Shown here piece after piece: positions 22,022-63,809 of a DNA stretch of 64,000 bases. The position numbers and the translations under genes are program-made. The stretch is taken from assembly GCA_045577755.1 (NCBI GenBank), contig JAZNJA010000090.1:2144-66143 (forward strand), given 5' to 3'. Each line of letters begins with the position of its first letter. Within the stretch, counting starts at the first letter, position 1. The notes under the pieces are model-generated. The model searched no databases. It had not been told where the DNA came from and worked only from the letters and a program-made list of their open reading frames with translations. This stretch comes from Eubacteriales bacterium. GTDB taxonomy: Bacteria; Bacillota; Clostridia; Oscillospirales; CAG-272.

Positions 22022-24538
22022 TTATTTTTTCAGCCCCAGTCTCTCGGCGGCCTCTTCCCTCATCTTGTACTTGAGGATCTTACCCGCGGCGTTCATGGGG
22101 AACTTCTCCACGAAGTCGATATAGCGGGGCACCTTGTGGCGGGCCATGTGGTCCAGGATGTACTGCTTCATCTCCTCCACGGTCATGGTCTCACCCTCAC
22201 GGAGGATGATGCAGGCCATGATCTCCTCGCCGTACTGCTTATCGGGCACGCCGATGACCTGGACGTCCCGCACCTTGGGATGGGTGTAGATGAACTCCTC
22301 GATCTCCTTGGGGTAGATGTTCTCACCGCCACGGATGATCATGTCCTTCAGGCGGCCCGTGATGAGGTAGTTCCCGTCGGGACGGCGGCAGGCCAGGTCA
22401 CCCGTGTGGAGCCAGCCGTCGTCGTCGATGGTCTCGGCGGTGGCGGCGGGCATCTTGTAGTAGCCCTTCATGATGTTGTAGCCGCGGGCCACGAACTCAC
22501 CGTTGACCCCGTCGGGGCAGTCCAGACCCGTCTCGGGGTCGATGATCTTGCACTCCACGTTGGCAAAGGCGGAGCCCACGGTCTCGGTGCGGACCTCCAG
22601 GCTGTCGTAGTAGCTGGACATGGTACAGCCGGGGGCGGCCTCGGTCTGACCGTAGACCGACACGATCTCCCGCATATTCATGACCTCGGGCTGTGCGGCC
22701 TTCTTCATCAGATCCGCGGGGCAGTTGGCGCCCGCCATGATGCCGATTCTCATGTAGGAGAAGTCGGTCTTGGCAAAGTCCTCGTGCTGCATCATAGCGA
22801 TGAACATGGTGGGCACGCCGTTGAAGGCGGTGATGTGCTCGTTGTGGACGCAGGCCAGAGCGGGCTTGGGGGAGAAGTAGGGCAGGGGGTACATGGTGGT
22901 ACCGTGGGTCATGGAGGCGGTCATGGACAGCACCATGCCGAAGCAATGGAACATGGGGACTTGGATCATCATGCGATCGGCGGTGGACAGCTCCATGTGG
23001 TCGCCGATGTACTTACCGTTGTTGACCACGTTGTAGTGGGTCAGCATGACGCCCTTGGGGAAGCCCGTGGTGCCCGAGGTGTACTGCATATTGCAGACGT
23101 CGTCCTTGTGAACGGCGGCGGCCATGCGGTGGACCTCCTCCACAGGGACCTGGACTGAACGAGCCACAGCCTCGTGCCACTCCATACAGCCCTTCTGGCG
23201 GTAGCCTACGGTGATGACGTTGCGCAAGAAGGGCAGACGGCGGGCGTGGAGGGGGGTGCCGGGGCGGAGGGTCTCCAGCTCGGGGCAAAGCTCGGCCACG
23301 ATCTTACCGTAATGGCAGTCCTTGGCTCCCTCGGTCATGATGAGGGTATGGGTATCCGACTGGCGGAGCAGGTACTCCACCTCGTGGATCTTGTAGGCGG
23401 TATTGACGGTGACCAGCACCGCGCCCAGCTTGACGGTAGCCCAGAAGGCGATGTACCACTGGGGGACGTTGGAGGCCCAGACCGCCACGTGGGTACCGGC
23501 CTTCACACCCATGGAGATCAGGGCGCGGGCGAAGGTGTCCACGTCGTCGCGGAACTCGGAATAGGTGCGGGTGTAGTCCAGGGTGGTATACTTGAAGGCG
23601 TACTGATCGGGGAACTCCTCCACCATGCGGTCCAGCACCTGGGAGAAGGTGAGATCAATGAGCTGATCCTTTTCCCAGACGTACTCGCCCGTGTGAGCGC
23701 GGTTGAAGTAGAGGGTGCGGCGCTTCTTGGAGGGATCGTCAAACTGCTTCATGAAGCTGCCGAACTGGGAGAGGATGATCTCCATATCATCCAGCTCCTC
23801 GCACCACCGGGGATCCCAGACCAGGGAGATGTAGCCGTCGTAGTTCACCGAGCGCAGAGCCAGCATGATCTCGGAGATGGGCAATTCACCCTCGCCCGCC
23901 AGGCAGAACTCCAGGCCGTCCTCGGTTCTGCGGGTGTCGCAGAAGTGGACGTGACGGACGTAGGCACCCAGATTCTTGATGATCTCCTCGGGAGTCTCAC
24001 CGCCACCGAAGTTGGCGGCGGACAGCTGCCACAGAGCGCCGAAGCTGTCGCTGGCAAAGCGGTCCAAGAGGTCGCGGAGGGCCACCGACTTGCAGAACAG
24101 ACCCGAGGTCTCCATGAGGAGACACACCCCGCCTGCCTCGGCCTCGGGGAGGACACGGGCAATCAGAGCGGCCACGTTCTCGATGGCGGCCTCCACCTCT
24201 CCCTCGGGAGCGGCGGCGGTGCGGAGACGGATATTGGGGATATGGAGGCTCTCCGCCACGTCCATGCAATGGAGGATCTCGGCCTCGGCCTCGGCAGCGG
24301 TGGCAGCGTCCGAGGGATCAATGAGGCAGTCAATACAGGGGACGGTCAGCTTCTTCTCATAGAGACGGCGGAGGGTAGCGGCGGCGGCATAGTCGTAAAA
24401 CGCGCCGTCACGGCTGACGAACATGGGGCCGTGGATGTTGTGGATCTCCACGCCGGCATAGCCCAGAGAGGAGGCCATGTCGCAGAACTCGTCGAAGGTA
24501 TGATTATGCCACCCTTTGGTGGAAAAAGAGAGTTTCAT
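22022..24538 (-). CDS. fusion protein: N-terminal xylose-isomerase-like TIM barrel (sugar phosphate isomerase/epimerase family) plus C-terminal AMP-dependent acyl-CoA synthetase/ligase (838 aa)
   Basis: Residues 1-~275, MKLSFSTKGWHNHTFDEFCDMASSLGYAGVEIHN..., look like an AP_endonuc_2-type barrel. From about residue 290: FadD-like adenylating enzyme (YTSGTTGFPKGVMLTH, GEFVARGYNIMKGYY, TGDL, PMNAAGKILK). Confidence 0.85.
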   Translation of the reverse strand: MKLSFSTKGWHNHTFDEFCDMASSLGYAGVEIHNIHGPMFVSRDGAFYDYAAAATLRRLYEKKLTVPCIDCLIDPSDAATAAEAEAEILHCMDVAESLHIPNIRLRTAAAPEGEVEAAIENVAALIARVLPEAEAGGVCLLMETSGLFCKSVALRDLLDRFASDSFGALWQLSAANFGGGETPEEIIKNLGAYVRHVHFCDTRRTEDGLEFCLAGEGELPISEIMLALRSVNYDGYISLVWDPRWCEELDDMEIILSQFGSFMKQFDDPSKKRRTLYFNRAHTGEYVWEKDQLIDLTFSQVLDRMVEEFPDQYAFKYTTLDYTRTYSEFRDDVDTFARALISMGVKAGTHVAVWASNVPQWYIAFWATVKLGAVLVTVNTAYKIHEVEYLLRQSDTHTLIMTEGAKDCHYGKIVAELCPELETLRPGTPLHARRLPFLRNVITVGYRQKGCMEWHEAVARSVQVPVEEVHRMAAAVHKDDVCNMQYTSGTTGFPKGVMLTHYNVVNNGKYIGDHMELSTADRMMIQVPMFHCFGMVLSMTASMTHGTTMYPLPYFSPKPALACVHNEHITAFNGVPTMFIAMMQHEDFAKTDFSYMRIGIMAGANCPADLMKKAAQPEVMNMREIVSVYGQTEAAPGCTMSSYYDSLEVRTETVGSAFANVECKIIDPETGLDCPDGVNGEFVARGYNIMKGYYKMPAATAETIDDDGWLHTGDLACRRPDGNYLITGRLKDMIIRGGENIYPKEIEEFIYTHPKVRDVQVIGVPDKQYGEEIMACIILREGETMTVEEMKQYILDHMARHKVPRYIDFVEKFPMNAAGKILKYKMREEAAERLGLKK

Positions 24539-24563: not shown

Positions 24564-25946
24564 TCAGACGGACTGCTCGAAGACAATCTTGTTGACGGCG
24601 CTGAGGTAGGCGCGAATGGAAGCACCGATGATGTCGGTGGAGATACCCGTACCGGCGTAGAGCTTGCCCTCGGCGCGAAGCTTCACCAGAGCCGAGCCCA
24701 TGGCCTCCTTGCCCTCGGTGACGGCCTGGATCTGGAAATCGTCCAGCTCAAAGTGACATCCCATGATCTGCTCCAGCGCCTTGATCGCGGCGTCGATGGG
24801 GCCGTCTCCCATGGAGATGCCCTGGAGCTGCTCTCCCTTCTTGTCCAGCACGATCTGGGCAGAGGCGGCGAGAGCGTTTCCGCCCGAGCTGTTGACCATG
24901 TAGCTGACCAGCGTGTAGGTGGGAGGCACCTGCATAGCCACGCCCGAGACAATGGCCTCCAGCTCCTTGGCCCCCACGGTCTTCTTGGCGGCCACGCGGA
25001 CGAACTCGTTGTACACGGCCTCCACGTCCTCCTCGGACAGGTCGTAGCCCAGCTTGGCCACGGCGGCGGATACGGCATCCTTGTCATCCTGAGCGTCCAG
25101 AGTAAAGCCGCTCTCGGAGGGGGAGGCGATATTGACCGAAGCGGCGCGGTCGATGCCCTTCCCCGCTACCACGCGGGAGATCTGGCGGAGGATGCGGTGG
25201 TACTCGGTGAGCTGGAGCCCTGCGGTGAAGCCGTAGTGGTTGCCGCAGTTGCGGATGATGCCGCAGAAGTCCTCCAGAGACACGCAGGCGCCCTCCACGG
25301 CGGTCTTGACGGTGTCGGCACCCATGCGGACGGCCAGGATGGCGGCGGCGGCGGCCATGGCGTTCTTGTCATCGCAGGAGACCCCCACGGGGACGGTCAC
25401 GGTGTCCATGACCCCCTTCACGAAGGCGGCGAACTCATCGGGCATCTTCTCCCCCGTGCTGTCGCAGACGGTAACGGCGGTAGCCCCCGCCTCCACGGCG
25501 GCGGTGAGGACGGCGGTCAGGAAGGCGGGCTCGGCGCGGGTGGCATCCACGGCGCAGAACTCCACGTCGGCGCAGACCGCCTTGGCTTTCGCCACGGTAG
25601 CGGAGACCCACTCGATCATCTTGGGAGGCTTCTTATGGGCGCTATACTCCATGCCCACGGGGGACACGGGCACCTCCACGCGGAGGCGGGGGTGCTTGGC
25701 GGCGGAGATCGCCTGTACAGCGTGGTCGAAGCTCTCGGCGGTCATGCCCACGCAGACCGACAAGACACCGGCCCCCGCGAAGGAGGAGGCGGTGCGGACG
25801 AAGAGGATATCGGTCTTGGGGTTATCAATGGCGGGCAGCTCGATGACGTCTACCTTCAGCTTTTCCAGCTGGCGGCAGATCTCGATCTTTTCCTTGAAGC
25901 TGAAGGCGCAGTTTTCACGGCACAGGGTACGGTCGGCGATTCTCAT
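24564..25946 (-). CDS. 2-isopropylmalate synthase/homocitrate synthase-family protein with degenerate catalytic motifs and an intact LeuA-type C-terminal regulatory domain (460 aa)
   Basis: HMGL-like barrel plus LeuA_dimer-like C-terminus (GDGPIDAAIKALEQI...AVTEGKEAMGSALVKL). The N-terminal motif is IADRTLCRENC rather than DTTLRDGEQ, and VSCDDKNAMAAA replaces the HxHND metal site. Confidence 0.8.
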   Translation of the reverse strand: MRIADRTLCRENCAFSFKEKIEICRQLEKLKVDVIELPAIDNPKTDILFVRTASSFAGAGVLSVCVGMTAESFDHAVQAISAAKHPRLRVEVPVSPVGMEYSAHKKPPKMIEWVSATVAKAKAVCADVEFCAVDATRAEPAFLTAVLTAAVEAGATAVTVCDSTGEKMPDEFAAFVKGVMDTVTVPVGVSCDDKNAMAAAAAILAVRMGADTVKTAVEGACVSLEDFCGIIRNCGNHYGFTAGLQLTEYHRILRQISRVVAGKGIDRAASVNIASPSESGFTLDAQDDKDAVSAAVAKLGYDLSEEDVEAVYNEFVRVAAKKTVGAKELEAIVSGVAMQVPPTYTLVSYMVNSSGGNALAASAQIVLDKKGEQLQGISMGDGPIDAAIKALEQIMGCHFELDDFQIQAVTEGKEAMGSALVKLRAEGKLYAGTGISTDIIGASIRAYLSAVNKIVFEQSV

Positions 25947-26079: not shown

Positions 26080-26350
26080 AAAACAAAAACCCCGAATGTA
26101 CAAACGTACATCCGAGGACGAAATTCATTCGCGGTACCACCTCGGTTATCTCAAAGCGAGATCACCTTATCGGAGCCCATCAGCTCCTCTGTCTTGTAAC
26201 GGGACAAACCGGAGAGACTTACTTCTTTCGGTTGGGTCTCTCTGCTCGGGAATGAGACTTACTTCACCCTCTCTATCGGCTCGCACCAACCGCCGACTCT
26301 CTGAAAGCAGGACAGGCAAAGAATAATTCCTTCATTGCATTTCTGTGATG
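26080..26350 (-). promoter_or_regulatory. T-box riboswitch leader 1 (inferred Leu specifier CUC)
   Basis: Minus-strand RNA has AGAGAG, a distal loop GGUUGGUGCGA, the T-box sequence GGUGGUACCGCG (26142..26131), and a terminator CCUCGGAUGUAC-GUUU-GUACAUUCGGGG followed by UUUUUGUUUU (26117..26080). Specifier slot CUC-A at 26256..26253. Confidence 0.8.
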
Positions 26351-26487: not shown

Positions 26488-27552
26488 TCAGTCGATAGCC
26501 AGAGTCCAACCGAACTTGTCCTCGATCTTGCCCCACTGGATACCCGTCAGAGTATCGTACAGGTGCTGGGTGACCTCGCCGATCTTGCCACCGTTTACGG
26601 TGTACTTCTTATCCTTGTAGCACAGCTCGCCGATGGGAGAGACCACGGCGGCGGTACCGGTGCCCCAGGCCTCCTCCAGGGTGCCGTTCTCCATGGCCTC
26701 GGCCAGCTCGTCCACGCTGATGAGACGCTCGCTGACCTTGTAGCCCTCGGAGCGCAGGACCTCCAGGCAGGACATACGGGTGATACCGGGCAGGATGGAG
26801 CCCGAGAGCATGGGGGTCACGATCTCGCCACCTATTTTGAACATGACGTTCATGGCGCCCACCTCCTCGATGTACTTGCGGTGGACACCGTCCAGCCACA
26901 GCACCTGGGCATAGCCCTTCTTCTCGGCGCGTGCACCGGCACGGTTGGAGGCGGCGTAGTTACCGCCGCACTTGGTGTAGCCCGTACCGCCCTTGACGGC
27001 TCGGACGTCCTCGTCCTCGATCATGATACCAACGGGGTTGATGCCCTCCTTGTAGTAGCTGCCCACAGGAGAGGCGATGATCATGAAGGTGGTGTGATGG
27101 ACGGCGTGCACACCCAGGGTCTCGTCGTTACCGAACATCAGGGGACGGAGGTAAAGAGAGGTACCGGGGGCGGAGGGAGTCCAATCCTGCTCCATGTTCA
27201 CGAAGGCGGTCAGCACCTCCATGCCCAGCTCCTCGGGGATCTCGGGCAGGCACAGACGCTCGGCGGAGCGGTTCAGACGGCGGATGTTCTCAATGGGGCG
27301 GAAGAGCTGGACCTTACCGTCGGTGCGGCGGTAGGCCTTCAGACCCTCGAAGATCTCGGAGCCGTAGTGCAGGACCGTAGCGGCGGGATGGAGGGACAGG
27401 TTGCCGAAGGGGACGATGCGGGCGTCGTACCAGCCACGCTCGGGCTCGTACTCCATGAGGAACATATGGTCGGTAAAGATCTTACCGAAGCCCAGGGTGG
27501 AAGCGTCGGGCTTCTCCTTGGGGCAGGCGGTCTTGGTGATGGAAATATTCAT
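26488..27552 (-). CDS. ilvE: branched-chain amino acid aminotransferase
   Basis: 354 aa, class IV aminotransferase. LGFGKIFTDHMF, EGLKAYR, GGTGYTKCGGNYAAS. Confidence 0.92.
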   Translation of the reverse strand: MNISITKTACPKEKPDASTLGFGKIFTDHMFLMEYEPERGWYDARIVPFGNLSLHPAATVLHYGSEIFEGLKAYRRTDGKVQLFRPIENIRRLNRSAERLCLPEIPEELGMEVLTAFVNMEQDWTPSAPGTSLYLRPLMFGNDETLGVHAVHHTTFMIIASPVGSYYKEGINPVGIMIEDEDVRAVKGGTGYTKCGGNYAASNRAGARAEKKGYAQVLWLDGVHRKYIEEVGAMNVMFKIGGEIVTPMLSGSILPGITRMSCLEVLRSEGYKVSERLISVDELAEAMENGTLEEAWGTGTAAVVSPIGELCYKDKKYTVNGGKIGEVTQHLYDTLTGIQWGKIEDKFGWTLAID

Positions 27553-27761: not shown

Positions 27762-28295
27762 TCAGTAGTTCGCACCCAGCTCCAGAGCCTTGTAGTTCAG
27801 CTCCAGCATATCGGCGCGCTTGGCGGAGATGACCTTGGCGAGGGCGGCGTTGACGCCCTCCTCGTTGTACTCGCCCAGAGCGGCCAGAATCTTGCCCACC
27901 AGGATCATATTGCCCAGGGTGGGGATACCGTTCTCACCGGCCATGCGGGTGGCGGGGATGGCGTAGGCCTTGACGTCGGTGCGCTTCAGGGGGCGCTCGA
28001 TGAGGGAGGAATCGTAGAAGATCATGCCGCCCTTCTTGACGGCGGCCTCGTAGCGATCCAGAGAAGGCAGATTCATGGCCACCAGCACGTCGGGCTTAGC
28101 CACGATGGGAGAGCCCACCGCGCCGTCGGAGATGATGATGCCGCAGCTGGCGGTACCGCCGCGCATCTCGGGGCCGTAGGAGGGGAGCCAGCTCACGTTC
28201 TTGCCCTCGGTCAGGCCCTTGTAGGCTATGAACTTACCTGCGAACAGGATGCCCTGTCCGCCGAAGCCGGAAAAGAGAAATTCCTTGGTACTCAT
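27762..28295 (-). CDS. 2-oxoacid:ferredoxin oxidoreductase, gamma subunit
   Basis: 177 aa. [14 protein letters not shown] motif. Abuts the beta gene. Confidence 0.88.
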
Positions 28296-29063
28296 TTAGT
28301 TTTCCTCCTTCTTGGCTGCCTCGGCAGCGGCGGTTCTGTCCTTGTACACGCCCAGAGGGTAGTAGGGGATCATCTTGTCGTCGATCCACTTCAACGCCGC
28401 CTGGGGAGTCATGCCCCAGTTGGTGGGGCAGGTAGAAAGGACCTCGATCAGCGAGAAGCCCTTGCCCTCCACCTGATTCCGGAAGGCTTTCTTGATGGCC
28501 TTCTTGGCGTTGCGGATCTGCTTGACGTTATTCACGGTGACGCGCTCCAGATACTCGGGGCCGTCCAGGGTGGCCAGCATCTCGCAGACGCGGATGGGGA
28601 AACCGCACTGCTTGACGTCACGGCCGTAGGGGGAGGTCTGGGTCACCTGACCGGGCAGGGAGGTGGGGGCCATCTGACCGCCGGTCATGCCGTAAATGGC
28701 GTTGTTGACGAAGATGACGGTGATGTTCTCGTTACGGGCGGCGGCGTGGACCGTCTCGGCCATACCGATGGAGGCCAGGTCGCCGTCACCCTGGTAGGTG
28801 AAGACGATGCTGTCGGGCAGGGCGCGCTTGACACCCGTAGCGATGGCGGGAGCGCGGCCGTGGGCGGCCTCGATCATATCGCAGTTGAAGTAGTTGTAGG
28901 CCATGACCGAGCATCCCACAGGGGCGATGCCGATGGCGTTACCTTCGATCCCCAGCTCGTCCATGACCTCGGCCACCAGACGGTGGATGATACCGTGGGT
29001 ACAGCCGGGGCAGTAGTGGAAGGGGATATCGTTCAGGGCATGAGGTTTATCGAAAACGACCAT
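28296..29063 (-). CDS. 2-oxoacid:ferredoxin oxidoreductase, beta (TPP-binding) subunit
   Basis: 255 aa. YCPGCTHG and GDGD...NN TPP-binding motifs. Confidence 0.9.
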   Translation of the reverse strand: MVVFDKPHALNDIPFHYCPGCTHGIIHRLVAEVMDELGIEGNAIGIAPVGCSVMAYNYFNCDMIEAAHGRAPAIATGVKRALPDSIVFTYQGDGDLASIGMAETVHAAARNENITVIFVNNAIYGMTGGQMAPTSLPGQVTQTSPYGRDVKQCGFPIRVCEMLATLDGPEYLERVTVNNVKQIRNAKKAIKKAFRNQVEGKGFSLIEVLSTCPTNWGMTPQAALKWIDDKMIPYYPLGVYKDRTAAAEAAKKEEN

Positions 29064-30136
29064 TAGTTGTTACCTCCGATTCTGGCGGCGGTCTCCTTGA
29101 TGCTCTCCAGCACCTGCTCGGGGGAGGGGATCATACCGCCGACGCGGTTGCAAAGGGTGACGGGGGCCTTGCCCTCGGTGGCCAGCATCACGTCCTCGAT
29201 CATCTGACCCATGGACAGCTCCACCGAAATGTAGGCCTTACAGGTAGCCAAAGAATCCTTGAACGCCTTCTTGGGGAAGGGCCACAGGGTGATGGGACGG
29301 ATCATGCCCACCTTGATGCCCATCTCGCGGGCGGCGTCCACGGCGTTGCGGGAGACGCGGGAGGCGATGCCGAAGGCGGCGATGCAGATCTCGGCATCCT
29401 CCATGCGGTAGGTCTCGTACATGACCTCGTTCTCTTCAATCACCTTGTAGCGCTCGTAGCGGGCAAAGTTCAGCTCCTCCAGCTCCTCGGGAACCAGGGA
29501 CAGGGAGTTGACGATGTTGTGGACGCGCTCCAGCTTGGTGCCGGTGGTAGCCCAGGGCTTCTCGATCTTCTCGCCCACCTTCAGGGCGTCCAGAGCCACA
29601 GGCTCCATCATCTGACCCATGGTACCGTCGGCAAGGATCATGGAGGTCATGCGGTACTTGTCGGCCAGATCGAAGCCGTGGACGGTGAGCTCGGCCATCT
29701 CCTGCACAGAGGAGGGGGCCAGGACGATCATGTGGAAGTCACCGTGACCGCCGCCCTTGGTGGCCTGGAAGTAGTCGGCCTGGGAGGGCTGGATACCGCC
29801 GAGACCGGGGCCGCCGCGCTGGACGTTGACCACCAGAGAAGGCAGATCAGCGCCCGCCAGGTAGGACAGACCCTCGCTCTTGAGGGAGATTCCGGGGGAG
29901 GAGGAGGATGTCATGACACGGGTGCCGGTGGAGGCCACGCCGTAGACCATGTTGATGGCCGCGACCTCGGACTCTGCCTGGAGGAACACGCCGCCGATCT
30001 TGGGCAGCCGCTTGGCCATGTAGGCCGCGATCTCGGTCTGGGGGGTGATGGGGTAACCGAAGTAGTGGCGGCAGCCCGCGATGATGGCGGCCTCCGCGAT
30101 GGCCTCGTTACCCTTCATAAGTACCTTATCTGCCAT
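29063..30136 (-). CDS. 2-oxoacid:ferredoxin oxidoreductase, alpha subunit (VorB/KorA-like)
   Basis: Start trimmed to MADKVLMKGNEAIAEAAIIAGCRHYFGYPITPQTEI (AAAGGAGAG RBS). 357 aa. Confidence 0.9.
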   Translation of the reverse strand: MADKVLMKGNEAIAEAAIIAGCRHYFGYPITPQTEIAAYMAKRLPKIGGVFLQAESEVAAINMVYGVASTGTRVMTSSSSPGISLKSEGLSYLAGADLPSLVVNVQRGGPGLGGIQPSQADYFQATKGGGHGDFHMIVLAPSSVQEMAELTVHGFDLADKYRMTSMILADGTMGQMMEPVALDALKVGEKIEKPWATTGTKLERVHNIVNSLSLVPEELEELNFARYERYKVIEENEVMYETYRMEDAEICIAAFGIASRVSRNAVDAAREMGIKVGMIRPITLWPFPKKAFKDSLATCKAYISVELSMGQMIEDVMLATEGKAPVTLCNRVGGMIPSPEQVLESIKETAARIGGNN

Positions 30137-30141
30137 GTCGG

Positions 30142-30360
30142 TCACTCTCCTTTCTCTACCTTGATGATGCAGTCGGGGCACATGGTGGCGCAGAAGGCGC
30201 AACCAATGCAGGCCTCGATGTTCTCTGCCACCACGGGGTGGTGACCCTTCTTGTTGATCTGATCCTCAGCCAGTGCCAGCACGTGCTTGGGGCAGACGTC
30301 CACGCAAAGGCCGCAGCCCTTGCAGTTGTCGGTTTTGAAGGTCAATTTACATTTTGCCAT
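30142..30360 (-). CDS. 2-oxoacid:ferredoxin oxidoreductase, delta subunit (2x[4Fe-4S] ferredoxin)
   Basis: Start trimmed to MAKCKLTF (AAGGAG RBS). CKGCGLCVDVCP and CIGCAFCATMCP cluster motifs. 72 aa. Confidence 0.88.
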   Translation of the reverse strand: MAKCKLTFKTDNCKGCGLCVDVCPKHVLALAEDQINKKGHHPVVAENIEACIGCAFCATMCPDCIIKVEKGE

Positions 30361-30429
30361 ATGTTTACTCCTTGTTTCATTGAGCAAATTACACGGAATT
30401 ATTGGGACGGCACCCGCCTTCACGGATCC

Positions 30430-30568: not shown

Positions 30569-31237
30569 TCAAAGATACTTGTTTTTCTGCAGGCCCAGGG
30601 GGAACGCATTCGGCACCTTCCCTGCCACGGCGGGGTACAGCTCCTGTCTCACGGTGGTCATGACCACGGGAAGACCCGAAAGGCCGCTGACCTCCTCGGC
30701 GTAGGCCCCGGAGGCGAGGATATCCTCGGCGGTGGTCATGGCACCCAAGTTGGAGTTGTTGATCAACCCCGTGAAGCGGATGCCCCCCGCGAACTCGATC
30801 TCCCGCAGGACCTCCATGGTGGAGGCGGCGTCGCGGGTGAGAGGGCGGTAGCAGTTGATGACCATGAGCATCTCATAGTCGTTCTCCAAAAGGATCTTGG
30901 GAGCCAGACGGCCCAGCACCAAAGCTCCGCGGTCATCGCCGCCGATATCCAGGACGGCGGTCATGGAGCGGTCGTCGGTGAGGGCGTACATCTCCTGGGG
31001 AAGGGCGGGGATATCCACGTTACTGTTGGCGTAGGCCGAGCAGATGAGGCGGATGCCCTGCTGTTCAAAGAAGGCCGCGCTGTCCTTGGTGCGGAAGTAG
31101 GGGTTGACGATATCCAGATCCGCCACGGTGACGGTGTCGCGGGACTTCTTCAGCTCGGCGGCGATGTTCACCGCCACGTTGGTCTTGCCGCTGCCGTAGT
31201 GGCCGCAGAGGATGGTCAAGCGTTTGAGGGGATACAT
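30569..31237 (-). CDS. P-loop NTPase of the MinD/ParA/CooC-like (SIMIBI) type, 222 aa
   Basis: Start at MYPLKRLTILCGHYGSGKTNVAVNIA (deviant Walker A), GGGAGG RBS 7 nt upstream. 14 nt after the synthetase stop. Confidence 0.75.
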   Translation of the reverse strand: MYPLKRLTILCGHYGSGKTNVAVNIAAELKKSRDTVTVADLDIVNPYFRTKDSAAFFEQQGIRLICSAYANSNVDIPALPQEMYALTDDRSMTAVLDIGGDDRGALVLGRLAPKILLENDYEMLMVINCYRPLTRDAASTMEVLREIEFAGGIRFTGLINNSNLGAMTTAEDILASGAYAEEVSGLSGLPVVMTTVRQELYPAVAGKVPNAFPLGLQKNKYL

Positions 31238-31251
31238 GAGGTTGCCTCCCA

Positions 31252-33579
31252 TCACAGCTTATTGCGCTGGATCTTACCGCTGGTGGTCTTGGGCAGCTCG
31301 TCGCGGAAGACCACGATACGGGGATACTTGTAGGGGGCGGTGCGCTCCTTGACGTAGCGCTGGATCTCGCGCTTCAGCTCCTCGGTAGGCTCGGTTCCCT
31401 TCACCAGCACGATGGAGGCCTTGACCACCTGGCCGCGGACCTCGTCGGGCTCGGCGGAAACGCCGCACTCCAGGACGAAGGGCAGCTCCATGATGACAGA
31501 CTCGATCTCAAAGGGCCCGATGCGGTAGCCCGAGGACTTGATGACGTCGTCCACGCGGCCAACGAACCAGTAGAAGCCGTCCTCGTCCTTCCAGGCGGTA
31601 TCACCGGTATGGTAGTAGCCGTCGTGCCAGACCTCGGCGGTCTTGTCGGGAGCGTTGTAGTAGCCGGTGAACAGACCGCAGGGGGCGCCGTCAGCCACGC
31701 GGATGCAGATCTCGCCCGTCTCACCCACGGGAACGGGCTTACCGTCGGCATCCTGCAGTTCCACCTCGTAGATGGGGGCAGGCTTACCCATGGAGCCGAT
31801 CTTGTGGGGGGCGCCGGTGAGGTTACCGATGATCATGGTGGACTCGGACTGACCGAAGCCCTCCAGGATCTGGAGTCCCGTGGCCTTCTCGAACTGGCGG
31901 TAGACCTCGGGGTTGAGGGCCTCGCCCGCGGTGGTCATGTGGCGCACCGAGGAGAGGTCGTACTTGGAGATATCCTCCTTCACCATCATGCGGAGCATGG
32001 TGGGAGGGGCGCAGAAGGTGGTGATCTGGTGCTTGGCGAACATAGGAAGAATATCCGCCGCGTCGAAGCGGTCGAAATCGTAGACGAAGGTGGCCGCCTC
32101 GCAAAGCCACTGTCCGTAGAGCTTACCCCACATGGACTTGGCCCAGCCCGTGTCGGAGATGGTCAAATGGAGACCGTCGGGATGGACGTTGTGCCAGTAG
32201 CGGGCGGTATGGAAGTGACCCAGGGGGTACTTGTGGTTGTGAGCCGCGATCTTGGGGTAGCCCGAGGTGCCCGAGGTGAAGAACATGAGGAGCAGATCGT
32301 CGCCGCAGGGGGAGTCCTCGGTGCGGTTGAAGTGGGAGGAGAACAGGGTGTACTCCTCGTCAAAGGTACGCCAGCCCTCTCGCTCGCCGTTCACAATGAT
32401 CTTGTGCTTGAGGGTAGGACAATGCTCGGCGGCCAGATCCACCTGATGGGCGGTGTCGCCGTCGGCGGTGCAGAGGATAGCCGAGACACCCGCGGAGTTG
32501 AAGCGGTACTCGAAGTCATGCTCCTGGAGCTGGTTGGTAGCGGGGATGGCGATGGCACCCAGCTTATTCAGACCCAGCATGGCGAACCAGAACTGGTAGT
32601 GGCGCTTCAGCACCAGCATGACGCGGTCGCCCTTCTTGATGCCCAGGGACTTGAAGTAGTTAGCGCACTGGGCGGAGGCCCGCTTCATGTCCTTGAAGGT
32701 GAAGCGACGCTCGGTGTGATCGCGGGAGACGTGGAGCATGGCCAGTTTCTCAGGATCCTTCTCGGCCACGGCGTCCACCAGGTCGAAGGCGAAGTTGAAC
32801 TTATCGGTGTTCTTGAAGGTAATGGAGGTAGGCGTACCAAGAGCGTTCTCGGTGACGTCGATGAACTTACGCCAGACGCGGTCGCTCTGCTGGTCGCGGT
32901 GGACCGTGGTCTCCTTCTTGGTGGCGGGGACCGCCTCGGTGGGAGCCAACTCGGGAATAGGCTCGCCCGTGGGGTTGAGGACGATGGCGTAGAACACGCA
33001 GTCCTGACCGCCCACGGCGATCATACCGTGAGGGGTATCGGAATCGTAGTAGATGGTATCGCCCGCGCTGAGCACCTCGGTATGCTCGCCCACCTGGACC
33101 ATGAGCTTACCCTCGATGACGATATCCAGCTCCTGCCCCGCGTGGGTGGTCAGCTCGATGTCGCGGTGCTGGGCCTCCTCGGAGTAGGCGGAGCGCACGA
33201 ACAGAGGCTCGGCAATACGGTTCTGGAAGGCGTAGGCCATGTTGTAGTACACCATGCCGTGGGCCTTGGCGATCTCCTGCCCCGCACCCGCGCGGGTGAC
33301 GGTGTAGGACTTCAGCTTGGGGCTGTAGCCTTCAATAATTTCGGTGACGTTGACGTTCAGCGCCAGGGCGCAACGGTAGATGAACGCGAAGTTGAGGTCG
33401 CTCTGACCGCTCTCGCAGAGGAGGTACTCCTCCACCGACACGCCGGTCTTGGCGGCCATCTGCTGGGGCTCCAGCCCCTCGATCTCACGGAGGGCGCGGA
33501 TTCGACCCGCCATCTCCTTGATCTTAAAATCCAATCCGGACATGGAGGAGGGCTCCATCGTTTTGGTTATCTGATCCAT
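31252..33579 (-). CDS. fusion protein: XRE-type HTH plus cupin plus AMP-forming acyl-CoA synthetase (775 aa), paralog 1
   Basis: Start trimmed to MDQITKT (GAAAGGA RBS). HTH (LEPQQMAAKTGVSVEEYLLCESGQ). Cupin (HAGQELDIVIEGKLMVQVGE...GDTIYYDSDTPHGM). Synthetase (FFTSGTSGYPKIA, TGDTAWKDEDGFYWFVGRVDDVIKSSGYRIGPFEIES, PKTTSGKIQR). Confidence 0.88.
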   Translation of the reverse strand: MDQITKTMEPSSMSGLDFKIKEMAGRIRALREIEGLEPQQMAAKTGVSVEEYLLCESGQSDLNFAFIYRCALALNVNVTEIIEGYSPKLKSYTVTRAGAGQEIAKAHGMVYYNMAYAFQNRIAEPLFVRSAYSEEAQHRDIELTTHAGQELDIVIEGKLMVQVGEHTEVLSAGDTIYYDSDTPHGMIAVGGQDCVFYAIVLNPTGEPIPELAPTEAVPATKKETTVHRDQQSDRVWRKFIDVTENALGTPTSITFKNTDKFNFAFDLVDAVAEKDPEKLAMLHVSRDHTERRFTFKDMKRASAQCANYFKSLGIKKGDRVMLVLKRHYQFWFAMLGLNKLGAIAIPATNQLQEHDFEYRFNSAGVSAILCTADGDTAHQVDLAAEHCPTLKHKIIVNGEREGWRTFDEEYTLFSSHFNRTEDSPCGDDLLLMFFTSGTSGYPKIAAHNHKYPLGHFHTARYWHNVHPDGLHLTISDTGWAKSMWGKLYGQWLCEAATFVYDFDRFDAADILPMFAKHQITTFCAPPTMLRMMVKEDISKYDLSSVRHMTTAGEALNPEVYRQFEKATGLQILEGFGQSESTMIIGNLTGAPHKIGSMGKPAPIYEVELQDADGKPVPVGETGEICIRVADGAPCGLFTGYYNAPDKTAEVWHDGYYHTGDTAWKDEDGFYWFVGRVDDVIKSSGYRIGPFEIESVIMELPFVLECGVSAEPDEVRGQVVKASIVLVKGTEPTEELKREIQRYVKERTAPYKYPRIVVFRDELPKTTSGKIQRNKL

Positions 33580-33610
33580 GTTTGATCCTTTCTCGGGTGT
33601 CGCGAGGCGC

Positions 33611-33920
33611 ACCAAAAGCAAAGCAAGCGCACCCGTCCCAAAGTTTCGTTACTTTGAGACGAGTGCGCATAAATCATTTATACAGCACCCGCGGTACCAC
33701 TCAAATTGCGGAAAGCTCCGCCACTCAGTCGGGTCCATCAACCCGTAGACACTAACGCGGTCTGACTCGGAGCGGGTCTACTCTCACGGGATTTTTCCCA
33801 CGGTGATTTCTTCCGCTCGGCTCGGGAGCTACAAATACCGCGACCGTGTCGGTAGCTTACACCAACCGCTACCTCTCTTTGGACCGTGCCGTGGCATCCT
33901 CTCCGTCAATGCCTTTGATA
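33611..33920 (-). promoter_or_regulatory. T-box riboswitch leader 2 (inferred Val specifier GUA)
   Basis: AGAGAG, then GUAGC-GGUUGGUGUAA-GCUAC. T-box AAUUUGAGUGGUACCGCG. Terminator GCGCACUCGUCUCAAAGU...ACUUUGGGACGGGUGCGC followed by UUGCUUUGCUUUU. Specifier slot GUA-G at 33832..33829. Confidence 0.8.
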
Positions 33921-33926
33921 CAGATA

Positions 33927-33955
33927 ATTATAACACAACTTTGTTTGTTTGTCAA
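33927..33955 (-). promoter_or_regulatory. consensus sigma-A promoter driving T-box 2
   Basis: Minus strand: TTGACA, 17 nt, TGT-TATAAT. Confidence 0.7.
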
Positions 33956-34035
33956 TTATTTTATTTGGGTAAAACCACGCAAAATTTCCTGTCATGACAA
34001 GTAATTTTTTGTAGTATTTCACACCTTCCCGCGGC

Positions 34036-36369
34036 TTACAGCTTGTTGCGCTGGATCTTGCCGCTGATGGTCTTGGGCAGCTCGTCGCGGAAGACCACGA
34101 TACGGGGGTACTTGTAGGGAGCGGTGTTCTTCTTGACGTAGTTCTGGATCTCCTTCTTCAGCTCCTCGGTGGGCTCGGTACCCTTCACCAGGACGACGGA
34201 GGCCTTGACCACCTGGCCGCGGACCTCGTCGGGCTCGGCGGACACACCGCACTCCAGGACGTAGGGCAGCTCCATGATGACAGACTCGATCTCGAAGGGC
34301 CCGATGCGGTAGCCCGAGGACTTGATCACGTCGCCCACGCGGCCCACGTACCAGTAGAAGCCGTCCTCATCGCACCAAGCGGTGTCGCCGGTATGGTAGT
34401 AGCCGTCGTGGAGGACCTCGTCGGTCTTCTCCTGGTTGCGGTAGTAACCCAGGAAGAGGCCGCAGGGAGCCTTGTCGCCCACCTTGATGACGATCTCGCC
34501 CGTCTCGCCGTCGGGGACGGGGTTGCCGTCGGGATCCACCAGCATCATGTCGTACAGGGGCGAGGGCTTACCCATGGAGCCTACCTTGTGGGGATTGCCC
34601 ATGAGGTTGGCGATGGACAGGGTAGTCTCGGTCTGGCCGAAGCCCTCCTTGATCTGGAGGCCCGTAGCCTTCTCGAACTGGCGGTAGACCTCGGGGTTGA
34701 GGGCCTCGCCCGCGGTGGTCATGTGGCGGACAGAGGAGAAATCGTACTTGGAGATGTCCTCCTTGATCATCATGCGGAGCATGGTGGGAGGCGCGCAGAA
34801 GGTGGTGATCTGGTACTTGGCAAACATGGGGAGGATCACCGAGGCGTCGAAGCGGTCGAAGTCGTAGGTGAAGACCGCGCCCTCGGCCAGCCACTGACCG
34901 TAGAGCTTGCCCCACAGAGCCTTGCCCCAGCCCGTATCCGAGATGGTGAAGTGGAGGCCGTCCTCGCTCACACCGTGCCAGTACTTGGCGGTGATGTAGT
35001 GGCCCAGAGCGTACTTGTAGCTGTGGGCGGCGATCTTGGGATAGCCCGTGGTGCCCGAGGTGAAGAACATGATCATGGGATCGTCACCGCAGGGGGTGTC
35101 GTCGCCGCGGTAGAAGTGAGCGGAATAGAGGGGGAACTCCTTGTCGAAGTTGCGCCAGCCCTCGCGGTCGCCGCCCACCAGGATCTTGGTCTTGAGGGAG
35201 GGAGACTCGACCTCGGCCAGCTCCACCTGACGGGCTACGTCACCGTCGGCGGTACAGACGATGGCAGACACCTCGGCGGCGTTGAAGCGGTACTCCAGAT
35301 CGTGCTTGACCAGCTGGTTGGTGGCGGGGATGGCGATGGCGCCCAGCTTATGGAGGCCCAGGATGGCGAACCAGAACTGGTAGTGGCGCTTGAGCACCAG
35401 CATGACGCGGTCGCCCTTTTGGATGCCCAGAGACTTGAAGTAGTTGGCGGCCTGGTTGGAGGCGCGCTTCATATCGTTGAAGGTAAAGCGGCGCTCCACC
35501 ATGTCGCGGGAGATGTGGAGCATGGCCAGCTTGTTGGGATCCCGCTTGGCGAGGGCGTCCACCACGTCGAAGGCGAAGTTGAACCGATCCTCGTTCTTGA
35601 AGGTGATCTTCTGCAAAGCCCCGTTCTCGTCCACCACGGTGTCGATGAAGGGGGTGGTGACCGTCTCGGTGGCGGGGAGCGCCTCGGTATGGACCTGGCG
35701 CAGAGTCTCCTGCACCAGCTCGGCAGACAGGGCGCTCTCACCGGGGAGGACCACCGCCATGAAAAGGCAATCCTGGCCGTCCACGGCGATCATACCGTGG
35801 GGGGTGGAGGAATTGTAGTAGATGCTGTCGCCGGCCTCCAGGTACTCCACGTTGGAGCCGACCTGGACCTTCAGCTTGCCCTCCAGCACGAAGTCGAACT
35901 CCTGACCCGCGTGCTTGACGAGATGGATGGGCTTGTTCTGCAGCTCGGGGTCGTACTCGTAGCGGACGCGGTAGGGCTCGGCGATCTTCTTGCGGAAGAG
36001 GGGGGCCACCGACATGATGCTGATGCCCGCCTCCTTGGCGGTCTCCTGGCCCTCGCCCTTGCGGGTGACGGTGTAGGAGGACAGATGGGCGGAGCGACCC
36101 TCCAAGAGATCGGTAATACCAATGCCGAAGGCCTGGGCGCACTTGTGGATGAATGTGAAGGGGAAGTCCAGCTCTCCCGCCTCGTAGGCCACGTAAGCGG
36201 CGTTGCTGACCTCGGTCTTCTCGGCCATCTCGGCTACGGTGAAGCCGCAGATATCACGCATCTCGCGGATACGGATCGCGACCTCCTGGAGCTTCGCCCG
36301 GTCGTTCGCTCGGGCATTGGCCGAAGCGGCGACCGTATCTACGGCATTCGTTCTTGTTTCTTTTGCCAT
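34036..36369 (-). CDS. fusion protein: XRE-type HTH plus cupin plus AMP-forming acyl-CoA synthetase (777 aa), paralog 2
   Basis: AAGGAGG RBS. Same architecture as 31252-33579. The C-terminal ~110 aa are nearly identical between the two. Confidence 0.88.
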   Translation of the reverse strand: MAKETRTNAVDTVAASANARANDRAKLQEVAIRIREMRDICGFTVAEMAEKTEVSNAAYVAYEAGELDFPFTFIHKCAQAFGIGITDLLEGRSAHLSSYTVTRKGEGQETAKEAGISIMSVAPLFRKKIAEPYRVRYEYDPELQNKPIHLVKHAGQEFDFVLEGKLKVQVGSNVEYLEAGDSIYYNSSTPHGMIAVDGQDCLFMAVVLPGESALSAELVQETLRQVHTEALPATETVTTPFIDTVVDENGALQKITFKNEDRFNFAFDVVDALAKRDPNKLAMLHISRDMVERRFTFNDMKRASNQAANYFKSLGIQKGDRVMLVLKRHYQFWFAILGLHKLGAIAIPATNQLVKHDLEYRFNAAEVSAIVCTADGDVARQVELAEVESPSLKTKILVGGDREGWRNFDKEFPLYSAHFYRGDDTPCGDDPMIMFFTSGTTGYPKIAAHSYKYALGHYITAKYWHGVSEDGLHFTISDTGWGKALWGKLYGQWLAEGAVFTYDFDRFDASVILPMFAKYQITTFCAPPTMLRMMIKEDISKYDFSSVRHMTTAGEALNPEVYRQFEKATGLQIKEGFGQTETTLSIANLMGNPHKVGSMGKPSPLYDMMLVDPDGNPVPDGETGEIVIKVGDKAPCGLFLGYYRNQEKTDEVLHDGYYHTGDTAWCDEDGFYWYVGRVGDVIKSSGYRIGPFEIESVIMELPYVLECGVSAEPDEVRGQVVKASVVLVKGTEPTEELKKEIQNYVKKNTAPYKYPRIVVFRDELPKTISGKIQRNKL

Positions 36370-36395: not shown

Positions 36396-36687
36396 CGAAT
36401 AAAAAAACACACCTGCCTCAAAACACTTTGAGACGGGTGCATAACACTCGCGGTACCACTCAAATTGCGGAAAAGCTTCCGCCACTCTTCGGAATCCAAT
36501 AATTCCTATGCTCTCACGCGGCATCCACGGGAGTCTCTACTTTCATCCATGGGACGGGTTCAAGTCCTCCGGCTCGGAAGGGATGGGTCTCTCAGGGGAA
36601 TACCGTCTGCTCGCACCAACCGCCGACTCTCTGTACGCATCCGACCTTGACCGTCTTCGTCATAGCCTTTGTCTTTTTATTCGATTG
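36396..36687 (-). promoter_or_regulatory. T-box riboswitch leader 3 (inferred Ile specifier AUC)
   Basis: AGAGAG, then GGUUGGUGCGA loop. T-box AAUUUGAGUGGUACCGCG. Terminator hairpin followed by UUUUUUUAUU. Specifier slot AUC-C at 36584..36581. Confidence 0.75.
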
Positions 36688-36692
36688 CGCGT

Positions 36693-36721
36693 ATTATAGC
36701 ACAATTTCGTTGACTTGTCAA
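36693..36721 (-). promoter_or_regulatory. consensus sigma-A promoter driving T-box 3
   Basis: Minus strand: TTGACA, 17 nt, TGC-TATAAT. Confidence 0.7.
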
Positions 36722-63536: not shown

Positions 63537-63735
63537 AAGTCCTCCTTGCTCCCGCGCGTCCACGCAACGCGACGGGTTCTTTATGCGGCGGAAGGCAGCT
63601 CCCGCCGGGGTGCTGTCTCATGACGGATACGCTCCTACAGGGAATCAGCCCGAGACCGGGATTCTGACTGGGTCACTTCATTATGCCATAGATCCGCGAA
63701 TATTGCAAGTGCTTTGTGTCCCGATTGCGCCGTAG

Positions 63736-63809
63736 GCGTATTTCACTGCCGCAGGCAATTTCACACGCGCCAGCGTATTTCACTCGTTCCGCAGGAACGA
63801 ATTTCACTG
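63736..63809. repeat. two tandem ~37-bp direct repeats, each with two ATTTCAC boxes flanking a small hairpin
   Basis: GCGTATTTCACTGCCGCAGGCAATTTCACACGCGCCA followed by GCGTATTTCACTCGTTCCGCAGGAACGAATTTCACTG. Confidence 0.6.

Follow-up and report, generated by a model that had tools for sequence, protein, structure and literature searches.

Two adjacent genes in a 64,000-nt stretch of DNA from a gut-type Clostridia genome (Eubacteriales bacterium, family-level lineage CAG-272; assembly GCA_045577755.1, contig JAZNJA010000090.1, positions 2,144 to 66,143 of the forward strand; hereafter 'the window') encode probable branched-acid CoA ligases that carry a transcription-factor-like head. Both genes, here called ACS1 and ACS2, lie in tandem on the minus strand. 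In each, one uninterrupted frame runs from an XRE-type helix-turn-helix (HTH) through a Cupin_2 barrel and a variable linker into an AMP-forming acyl-CoA synthetase of the MacS type, which is complete. Each sits behind a T-box leader, read as valine-specific for ACS1 and isoleucine-specific for ACS2, and the two heads appear to have diverged along the same Val/Ile line. We tentatively propose, at a probability of roughly 45%, that the head is a former partner subunit which became a fused metal-cupin ligand sensor tuning the ligase.

ACS1 occupies positions 31252-33579 and encodes 775 aa from an ATG at 33579. Its open reading frame (ORF) opens at a TTG at 33621 (ORF span 31252-33621); the true start is probably the ATG rather than the TTG, because database homologues are called at 775 aa. 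ACS2 (34036-36369) encodes 777 aa, and the two products share 69% identity over their full length. The initial annotation had read each of the two polypeptides as an XRE HTH and a cupin followed by a complete AMP-forming synthetase. This was borne out by the Pfam scan, the ORFs and AlphaFold2 (AF2) models, and the head peptides it had quoted were located in the ACS1 translation. Its expectation that the head would score as HTH_3 and Cupin_2 held for Cupin_2 in both proteins (46.0 bits in ACS1 and 44.5 bits in ACS2, cut-off 27.2) and for HTH_3 in ACS2 (26.5 bits, cut-off 23). It did not hold for HTH_3 in ACS1 (19.7 bits), where HTH_19 (24.5 bits) and HTH_31 also fell below their cut-offs. Scores for AMP-binding and AMP-binding_C were 227.6 and 76.4 bits in ACS1 and 225.2 and 77.7 bits in ACS2.

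The XRE-like helical domain of ACS1 (residues 15-85; 33325-33537, minus strand, as are all features below) was delimited from the sub-cut-off Pfam matches and AF2, which placed helices at residues 15-34, 38-45, 49-56, 64-74 and 78-83 (predicted local distance difference test, pLDDT, 83-97). It is followed by the cupin barrel with its leading strands (residues 101-203; 32971-33279), a Pro/Thr/Glu-rich linker (residues 204-245; 32845-32970) and the ligase (residues 246-775 plus the stop codon; 31252-32844). The linker varied in both length and sequence, had 0% conserved positions (a consensus of x throughout) and fell below pLDDT 50 at residues 205-212 and 226-228. Approximate spans of the corresponding ACS2 domains are 36094-36306 (HTH), 35740-36048 (cupin) and 34036-35652 (ligase). 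The structural modelling that the initial annotation had suggested recovered a five-helix domain, a beta-barrel and the ligase fold, in that order (full-length model, predicted template modelling score, pTM, 0.66; N-terminal model, pLDDT 86 and pTM 0.55).

This architecture had been considered unusual, which proved wrong by frequency. A search with residues 15-235 only, against full-length proteins of 434-1380 aa, matched 6,305 clusters (90% identity), and relatives occurred in at least 592 genomes of a collection holding one genome per species. All of the best 120 of these 6,305 clusters carried both Cupin_2 and AMP-binding; most were ~775 aa long and a few were truncated. Their NCBI names were 'AMP-binding protein' or 'cupin domain-containing protein', i.e. 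the architecture is already catalogued in databases, under generic names. A survey of its distribution, as had been suggested, found it to be common and, among the best 80 loci, nearly confined to gut and rumen Clostridia metagenome-assembled genomes (MAGs) (Acutalibacteraceae, Oscillospiraceae, Ruminococcaceae and Christensenellales). Almost all of these 80 loci, from independent MAGs, held one ORF, 755-770 aa long, and in most of them a T-box core lay within ~100 nt upstream. Outside Bacillota, the spread is supported by a single Prolixibacteraceae cluster. The literature searches made found no paper on an HTH-cupin-ligase fusion, and none assigning these genes, or their control, to a branched-acid route. 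Pseudomonas aeruginosa FadD1, a non-canonical transcription factor (PMC12754631), has no HTH and was set aside as not comparable.

The initial annotation had also named a separate ORF joined by a missed stop or frameshift as the finding that would overturn its reading. The probability of such an assembly artefact is negligible. Split versions of the pair do occur in other taxa, but ACS1 and ACS2 are both continuous in frame, a dedicated 40-residue linker stands in place of an intergenic gap, and the fused ORF is present in more than 60 independent MAG contigs and thousands of database clusters. We excluded the artefact because the same fused ORF recurs both in independent MAGs and in the two paralogs.

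The split versions point to where the head may have come from. In a search of cluster representatives, its nearest non-fused relatives were 185-aa HTH-cupin proteins (33-46% identity), whose genes are followed immediately, on the same strand, by a gene for a 550-aa ligase sharing 48-57% identity with the ligase part of the fusions. This pairing was found in metagenome contigs and in 19/20 loci drawn from a set of 401 genomes belonging to the same phylum as the window, with gaps from -4 nt upward (median ~15 nt). Named carriers included Dehalobacter (e.g. AHF09990.1 and AHF10206.1 of Dehalobacter restrictus), Peptococcaceae and a Prolixibacteraceae MAG, and all of the small proteins were annotated as XRE regulators or cupin proteins. 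Four of 20 wider regions held the split pair in one string with a P-loop gene and the alpha, beta and gamma genes of a VOR-type 2-oxoacid:ferredoxin oxidoreductase (VOR), the same genes that lie next to ACS1; in two of these four, the HTH-cupin gene stood between VOR gamma and the ligase. A quick maximum-likelihood tree placed 41/42 fused heads in one clade (Shimodaira-Hasegawa-like approximate likelihood ratio test, 99) nested among split forms. As this clade contains both paralog subclades, there was one main fusion event, prior to the duplication. On this view the head is the fused counterpart of a small protein for which many other anaerobes have a gene of its own, upstream of the same ligase. 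No T-box or other Rfam leader was detected in the 14 split loci scanned, whereas the fused loci have T-boxes.

To compare the paralogs, 66 fused proteins were divided into ACS1-like (54) and ACS2-like (12) groups, and positions at least 85% conserved within each group but different between them were scored as group-specific. Sixteen positions qualified, 14 within residues 15-203 and two in the 530-residue ligase. Normalised to variable positions, this equated to 14/135 in the head versus 2/253 in the ligase (Fisher test, p = 1.4e-5), an enrichment robust to the threshold. None fell in the recognition helix and seven were located in or between the strands at residues 103-142. Between-group identity was 43-56% for the head and 72% for the ligase. 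Where T-box specifiers could be parsed with stem I confirmed, they were Val for 26/26 ACS1-like and Ile for 6/6 ACS2-like genes. Given that group-specific positions concentrate in the head and that the groups match the T-box specifiers, these alignments indicate that after duplication the heads diverged in a fixed way tracking Val/Ile, whilst the catalytic domains hardly changed.

The capacity of the HTH to read DNA was judged from sequences aligned to one profile: 66 heads from fusions, 20 split members of the family, and 20 second-tier XRE-cupin proteins, of which 19/20 had no MacS-type ligase within 3 kb. The recognition helix of ACS1 is acidic (VSVEEYLLCESGQSD). Across the ligase-linked family it follows the pattern [ST]-x-E-E-Y-x-x-[CY]-E-x-G-x-x-D, with a net charge of -3.7 in fused members and -3.5 in split members. 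Second-tier XRE-cupins have S-x-S-x-L-S-Q-I-E-R-G (net charge +0.3), Escherichia coli PuuR has a canonical helix (-1) and ~40 other XRE domains of the source genome have [ST]-x-Q-x-[VI]-S-[KR]-[WY]-E-x-G (-1 to +3). The canonical contacts, [ST]-x-Q-x-[VI]-S-[KR]-x-E-x-G, were absent from all 86 family members examined: Y37, E41 and D46 are invariant, and the S-Q and K/R contacts are replaced by Y...E.G..D. Structural Arg/Glu residues of the HTH fold were, however, invariant. The head-family profile scored 27 bits on SinR and 49 bits on 1y9q, versus 66 and 99 bits for an ordinary XRE-cupin profile. A search for a shared inverted-repeat half-site upstream of 19 split operons (k = 5-7, spacer 0-14) gave nothing beyond shuffled controls, a weak negative, and the AT-rich palindromes visible by eye near -10 boxes overlapped promoter elements and occurred in one family only. 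The acidic helix, the lost contacts, the low scores on DNA binders and the lack of a shared half-site together make canonical DNA binding by the head unlikely.

Conservation was also evident in the cupin barrel. The triad H146-x3-E150...H184 was invariant across 69 family members and is predicted to form a 2-His-1-Glu metal site. Foldseek matched the N-terminal AF2 model about equally well to the regulator 1y9q and to the enzymes HppE, Psf4, HEPD and MPnS, several of which have a helical N-terminal domain. HppE is a homotetrameric Fe(II) enzyme composed of an alpha domain and a cupin domain, and its helical domain does not read DNA (PMC9088020). The head profile aligned to HppE in a single stretch (E = 5e-9), and the equivalent helix of HppE is acidic too. 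A specific relationship was rejected, since the ordinary XRE-cupin control profile matched HppE better (E = 1.4e-13); HppE is therefore a precedent at the superfamily level and no specific relative.

These observations bear on several explanations of the head. The initial annotation first suggested that the enzyme may moonlight as a DNA-binding regulator. It would then be a trigger enzyme in the manner of BirA, PutA or NadR, with the HTH recognising an operator at the promoter of its own gene or of neighbours, and with the DNA affinity set by the cupin or by the acyl-adenylate/acyl-CoA state of the ligase. The domain order is that of the XRE-cupin proteins, described as local repressors that in Pseudomonas act on nearby metabolic genes (PMC7901475); the best PDB sequence match of the head is the annotated regulator 1y9q; the HTH fold is retained; and the split operons, having no T-box, would need other regulation. 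However, the suggestion went unsupported, and we regard it as improbable: the canonical Q and S-K/R contacts are gone in 86/86 family members and replaced by a helix of about -3.5 charge, the head profile fits DNA-binding XRE proteins such as SinR far less well than its control, the 19 split operons share no inverted repeat or palindrome upstream, and the recognition helix holds no paralog-specific residue. Short gene gaps and fusion speak for stoichiometry at the enzyme level, and two of the four split loci linked to VOR have the gene in mid-operon, between VOR gamma and the ligase. It is only slightly easier to credit, and still distinctly unlikely, that the cupin is itself a metal-dependent enzyme acting on the acid, acyl-CoA or 2-oxoacid, with the helical domain serving oligomerisation as in HppE. 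The invariant triad, the level Foldseek ranking of HppE, Psf4, HEPD and MPnS with 1y9q, the one-stretch alignment and the acidic helix of HppE all fit this idea, but an identical triad is present in PuuR and ordinary XRE-cupins, the resemblance to HppE is of superfamily level only, the route from acid through acyl-CoA and 2-oxoacid to amino acid is complete without an extra chemical step, and HppE-type oxidative chemistry is unlikely in strictly anaerobic hosts.

Alternatively, the head could be a structural or docking module that senses no ligand, and either oligomerises the ligase or anchors it to a partner (VOR or the P-loop protein), perhaps for acyl-CoA channelling. Cupin and XRE domains often dimerise, the linker is flexible, and synteny with VOR and the P-loop gene extends across distant Firmicutes. 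Yet both paralogs would dock to the same VOR, and their heads have nonetheless diverged clade-specifically along with the Val/Ile T-boxes; the invariant metal triad would be superfluous for docking; and 16/20 sampled split pairs had no VOR within ~8 kb. We consider this explanation unlikely. A fused ligand sensor accommodates the data better than a DNA-binding regulator, because the paralog-discriminating residues lie in the head and track the T-box specifier. Under the sensor hypothesis, the head would have kept the XRE fold and the 2-His-1-Glu site and lost the DNA-reading surface. It would bind a small molecule specific to each paralog (the acid substrate, the 2-oxoacid or the amino acid made at the end of the route), and binding would tune ligase activity, placing protein-level control under the tRNA-level T-box. 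The initial annotation had offered a cupin acting as a metabolite sensor on top of the T-box as its second option; the distribution of discriminating residues agrees with this part of its proposal, whilst the ligand and allostery are still at the stage of prediction. A more far-reaching version, which we hold to be doubtful, is that a whole clade of XRE-cupin proteins gave up DNA binding and became end-product-sensing allosteric subunits, or in gut and rumen Clostridia fused domains, of the branched-acid CoA ligases with which valine and isoleucine synthesis by reductive carboxylation begins, the Val and Ile heads binding their own amino acid or 2-oxoacid at the metal site and thereby inhibiting the first ATP-consuming step. 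If true, classical feedback inhibition would be layered under T-box attenuation.

Several points weigh against the sensor hypothesis. The ligand, the metal and the allosteric effect on catalysis are ones that we infer. MacS and MbcS, the closest known relatives of the ligase part, function without a head, and the head is therefore dispensable for catalysis. The full-length AF2 model, with its low-confidence linkers, was uninformative on how the head docks to the ligase; rigid docking was set aside given the pTM of 0.66 and the flexible, unconserved linker. Overall, evolution is faster in the head than in the ligase, and this inflates the number of group-specific substitutions, though the enrichment survives normalising to variable positions. 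Whole-domain HTH charge, which differed between the family (-5) and second-tier XRE-cupins (+2; p = 1e-7 to 1e-11), failed within the source genome, whose other XRE domains span -6 to +4. It was rejected as a discriminator because of this overlap, and only the charge and motif of the recognition helix were relied upon. An acidic helix could also be compatible with non-canonical DNA binding. Finally, linkage of head and ligase is not absolute. One genome of the window's class (G356) has two family HTH-cupin genes that are not beside ligases (L160, contig C17; L161, contig C9), and of the ligases with at least 50% identity, three or four lack an HTH-cupin partner. An obligate linkage was dropped because these copies, and the stand-alone copy P0161, lie away from ligases.

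One of the two HTH-cupin genes in G356 precedes a GH31 glycosidase gene, and upstream of the HTH-cupin gene on contig C17 (L096) there is a promoter-like TTGACA...TATAAT followed by a GC-rich leader of ~190 nt that has no Rfam match. The same genome has two MacS-type ligases on other contigs, one of them after a phosphoenolpyruvate carboxykinase gene. A sister ligase subfamily (42-49% identical; L162, G134:C7 and L163, G052:C1) has no HTH-cupin partner and directly follows genes for a MeaB-like GTPase and a CobO/BtuR-type corrinoid adenosyltransferase, which suggests a link to a B12-dependent acyl-CoA mutase.

The ligase part itself closely resembles known enzymes of branched-acid activation. 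Residues 246-775 of ACS1 matched Methanosarcina acetivorans MacS (PDB 3etc) with an E value of 1e-185, and the AF2 ligase superposed on 3etc with a template modelling score of 0.91 at 48% identity (Foldseek). The core motifs A3, A7, A8 and A10 of the ANL superfamily were intact (TSGTSGYPK, YHTGD, GRVDDVIKSSGYRIGPFEIE and PKTTSGKIQR). The best NCBIfam model was that of Staphylococcus aureus MbcS (NF047394), which scored the two proteins at 432.4 and 425.9 bits; as its equivalog cut-off is 850, they are ligases related to MbcS and not equivalogs. Short branched acids such as 2-methylbutyrate are activated by MacS and MbcS (PMC10455477, PMC10026030), 2-methylbutyrate being a substrate of MacS (PMC10455477). 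Each gene would thus encode a MacS-type short branched-chain acid:CoA ligase. Based on the Val and Ile T-boxes, the VOR and aminotransferase context and these relatives, we infer that the most likely substrates are isobutyrate for ACS1 and 2-methylbutyrate for ACS2. Residue 480 of ACS1 (~32140-32142), next to a conserved Trp in the motif DTGW[AG]K, is Ala in Val-type and Gly in Ile-type proteins. This A480G difference, one of the two group-specific positions in the ligase and the more notable one, is a candidate determinant of acyl-pocket size, isobutyrate versus 2-methylbutyrate. The source genome has no MacS-type ligase other than these two fusions.

Both genes have the same regulatory layout, with the T-box between the promoter and the start codon. 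The ACS1 leader (33652-33918; 77.6 bits, E = 2.4e-16) has a specifier read as GUA (Val) and the ACS2 leader (36426-36672; 78.1 bits, E = 1.8e-16) one read as AUC (Ile); both are full-length matches to RF00230 yet remain under the Rfam gathering score of 93. Sigma-70-type promoters, read from the sequence as TTGACA-17 nt-TATAAT with a TG extension, precede them at 33927-33955 (ACS1) and 36693-36721 (ACS2). Each ligase gene would be switched on by its own Val or Ile leader.

Downstream of ACS1, on the same strand, are a P-loop-like gene, a ferredoxin, VOR alpha, beta and gamma, an aminotransferase, a third T-box, a LeuA-like gene and a TIM-barrel::ligase fusion. The VOR-type genes span 27762-30423 (ferredoxin, 30142-30423; alpha, 29063-30202; beta, 28296-29063; gamma, 27762-28295) and are followed by a class IV (branched-chain) aminotransferase (26488-27552), the final step of the inferred route. 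In this route, the acyl-CoA products of the ligases would feed the adjacent VOR and then the aminotransferase, such that valine and isoleucine are rebuilt by reductive carboxylation. The fusions are strong candidates for its first, ATP-consuming step. Synteny with the VOR/P-loop context was found in 27-33/80 fused loci. The P-loop NTPase-like gene (30569-31255; 228 aa) overlaps the ACS1 stop codon and has weak ParA/NUBPL and CbiA matches; its product may serve VOR in maturation or in the delivery of Fe-S clusters. It lies between the ligase and VOR genes in 33/80 fused loci, and adjoins VOR in the split loci L165 (Peptococcaceae MAG), L166, L177 (Dehalobacter) and L181.

Further along, the third T-box (26111-26344; 112 bits) was the sole one in the window to reach the Rfam gathering score. 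The gene under it encodes a LeuA-like protein (24564-25946; HMGL-like and LeuA_dimer), behind which lies a third ligase (22022-24538), which joins a xylose-isomerase-like TIM barrel (AP_endonuc_2) to an AMP-binding enzyme of the FadD type. A TIM-barrel plus ligase with 38% identity to it occurs in locus L180 (G259), directly upstream of a split HTH-cupin/ligase pair. Elsewhere in the window, a Gut-1 RNA (RF01706) matched at 63735-63809 with 56.4 bits (gathering score 50).

It has been known since the 1960s that anaerobes of the rumen and gut depend on branched short-chain acids for making branched-chain amino acids. If the sensor hypothesis is true, the ligases studied here would have a second control layer of a new type, in which a transcription-factor fold is reused as an enzyme sensor, and the names 'XRE family transcriptional regulator' and 'cupin domain-containing protein' may be misleading for thousands of database proteins. 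The question is directly testable, owing to the near-identical ligases with diverged heads and to the split pairs in culturable Dehalobacter.

Parallels to parts of this arrangement exist in known systems. BirA, like ACS1 and ACS2, is an adenylate-forming enzyme joined to an HTH. The covalent HTH-enzyme architecture of ACS1 and ACS2 recalls bifunctional fusions of the BirA, PutA and NadR type, which are known DNA binders, whereas the in silico signs in ACS1 and ACS2 point away from DNA binding. IlvN, with IlvB, is a small sensor subunit encoded beside its catalytic partner and in this respect resembles the split pair; its sensor is an ACT domain, in contrast to the candidate metal-cupin with a vestigial-looking HTH proposed here. 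The XRE-cupin transcription factors (E. coli PuuR; P. aeruginosa PauR, PsdR and ErfA; Vibrio cholerae 1Y9Q) resemble the head in two-domain order and in approximate size (~185 aa for its stand-alone form), carry the same H-x-G-x-E...P-H cupin motif and likewise lie among metabolic genes (PMC7901475). Unlike these separately transcribed proteins, the head has an acidic helix devoid of canonical contacts and HTH scores at or below Pfam cut-offs, its gene is a median of ~15 nt from, or fused to, that of the enzyme, and the operator search was negative. HppE, HEPD, MPnS and Psf4 share the cupin with a 2-His-1-Glu site and, for HppE, a helical domain that does not read DNA (PMC9088020) and whose equivalent helix is acidic, but the likeness is of superfamily level and ACS1 and ACS2 have no phosphonate context, belong to anaerobic hosts and give no sign of catalysis in the head. 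The closest likeness of the ligase part, probably extending to branched-acid activation, is to MacS (M. acetivorans, 3ETC) and S. aureus MbcS. Neither of these has an N-terminal HTH-cupin head, and unlike them ACS1 and ACS2 are under T-box control and grouped with VOR and the branched-chain aminotransferase, which indicates an anabolic use.

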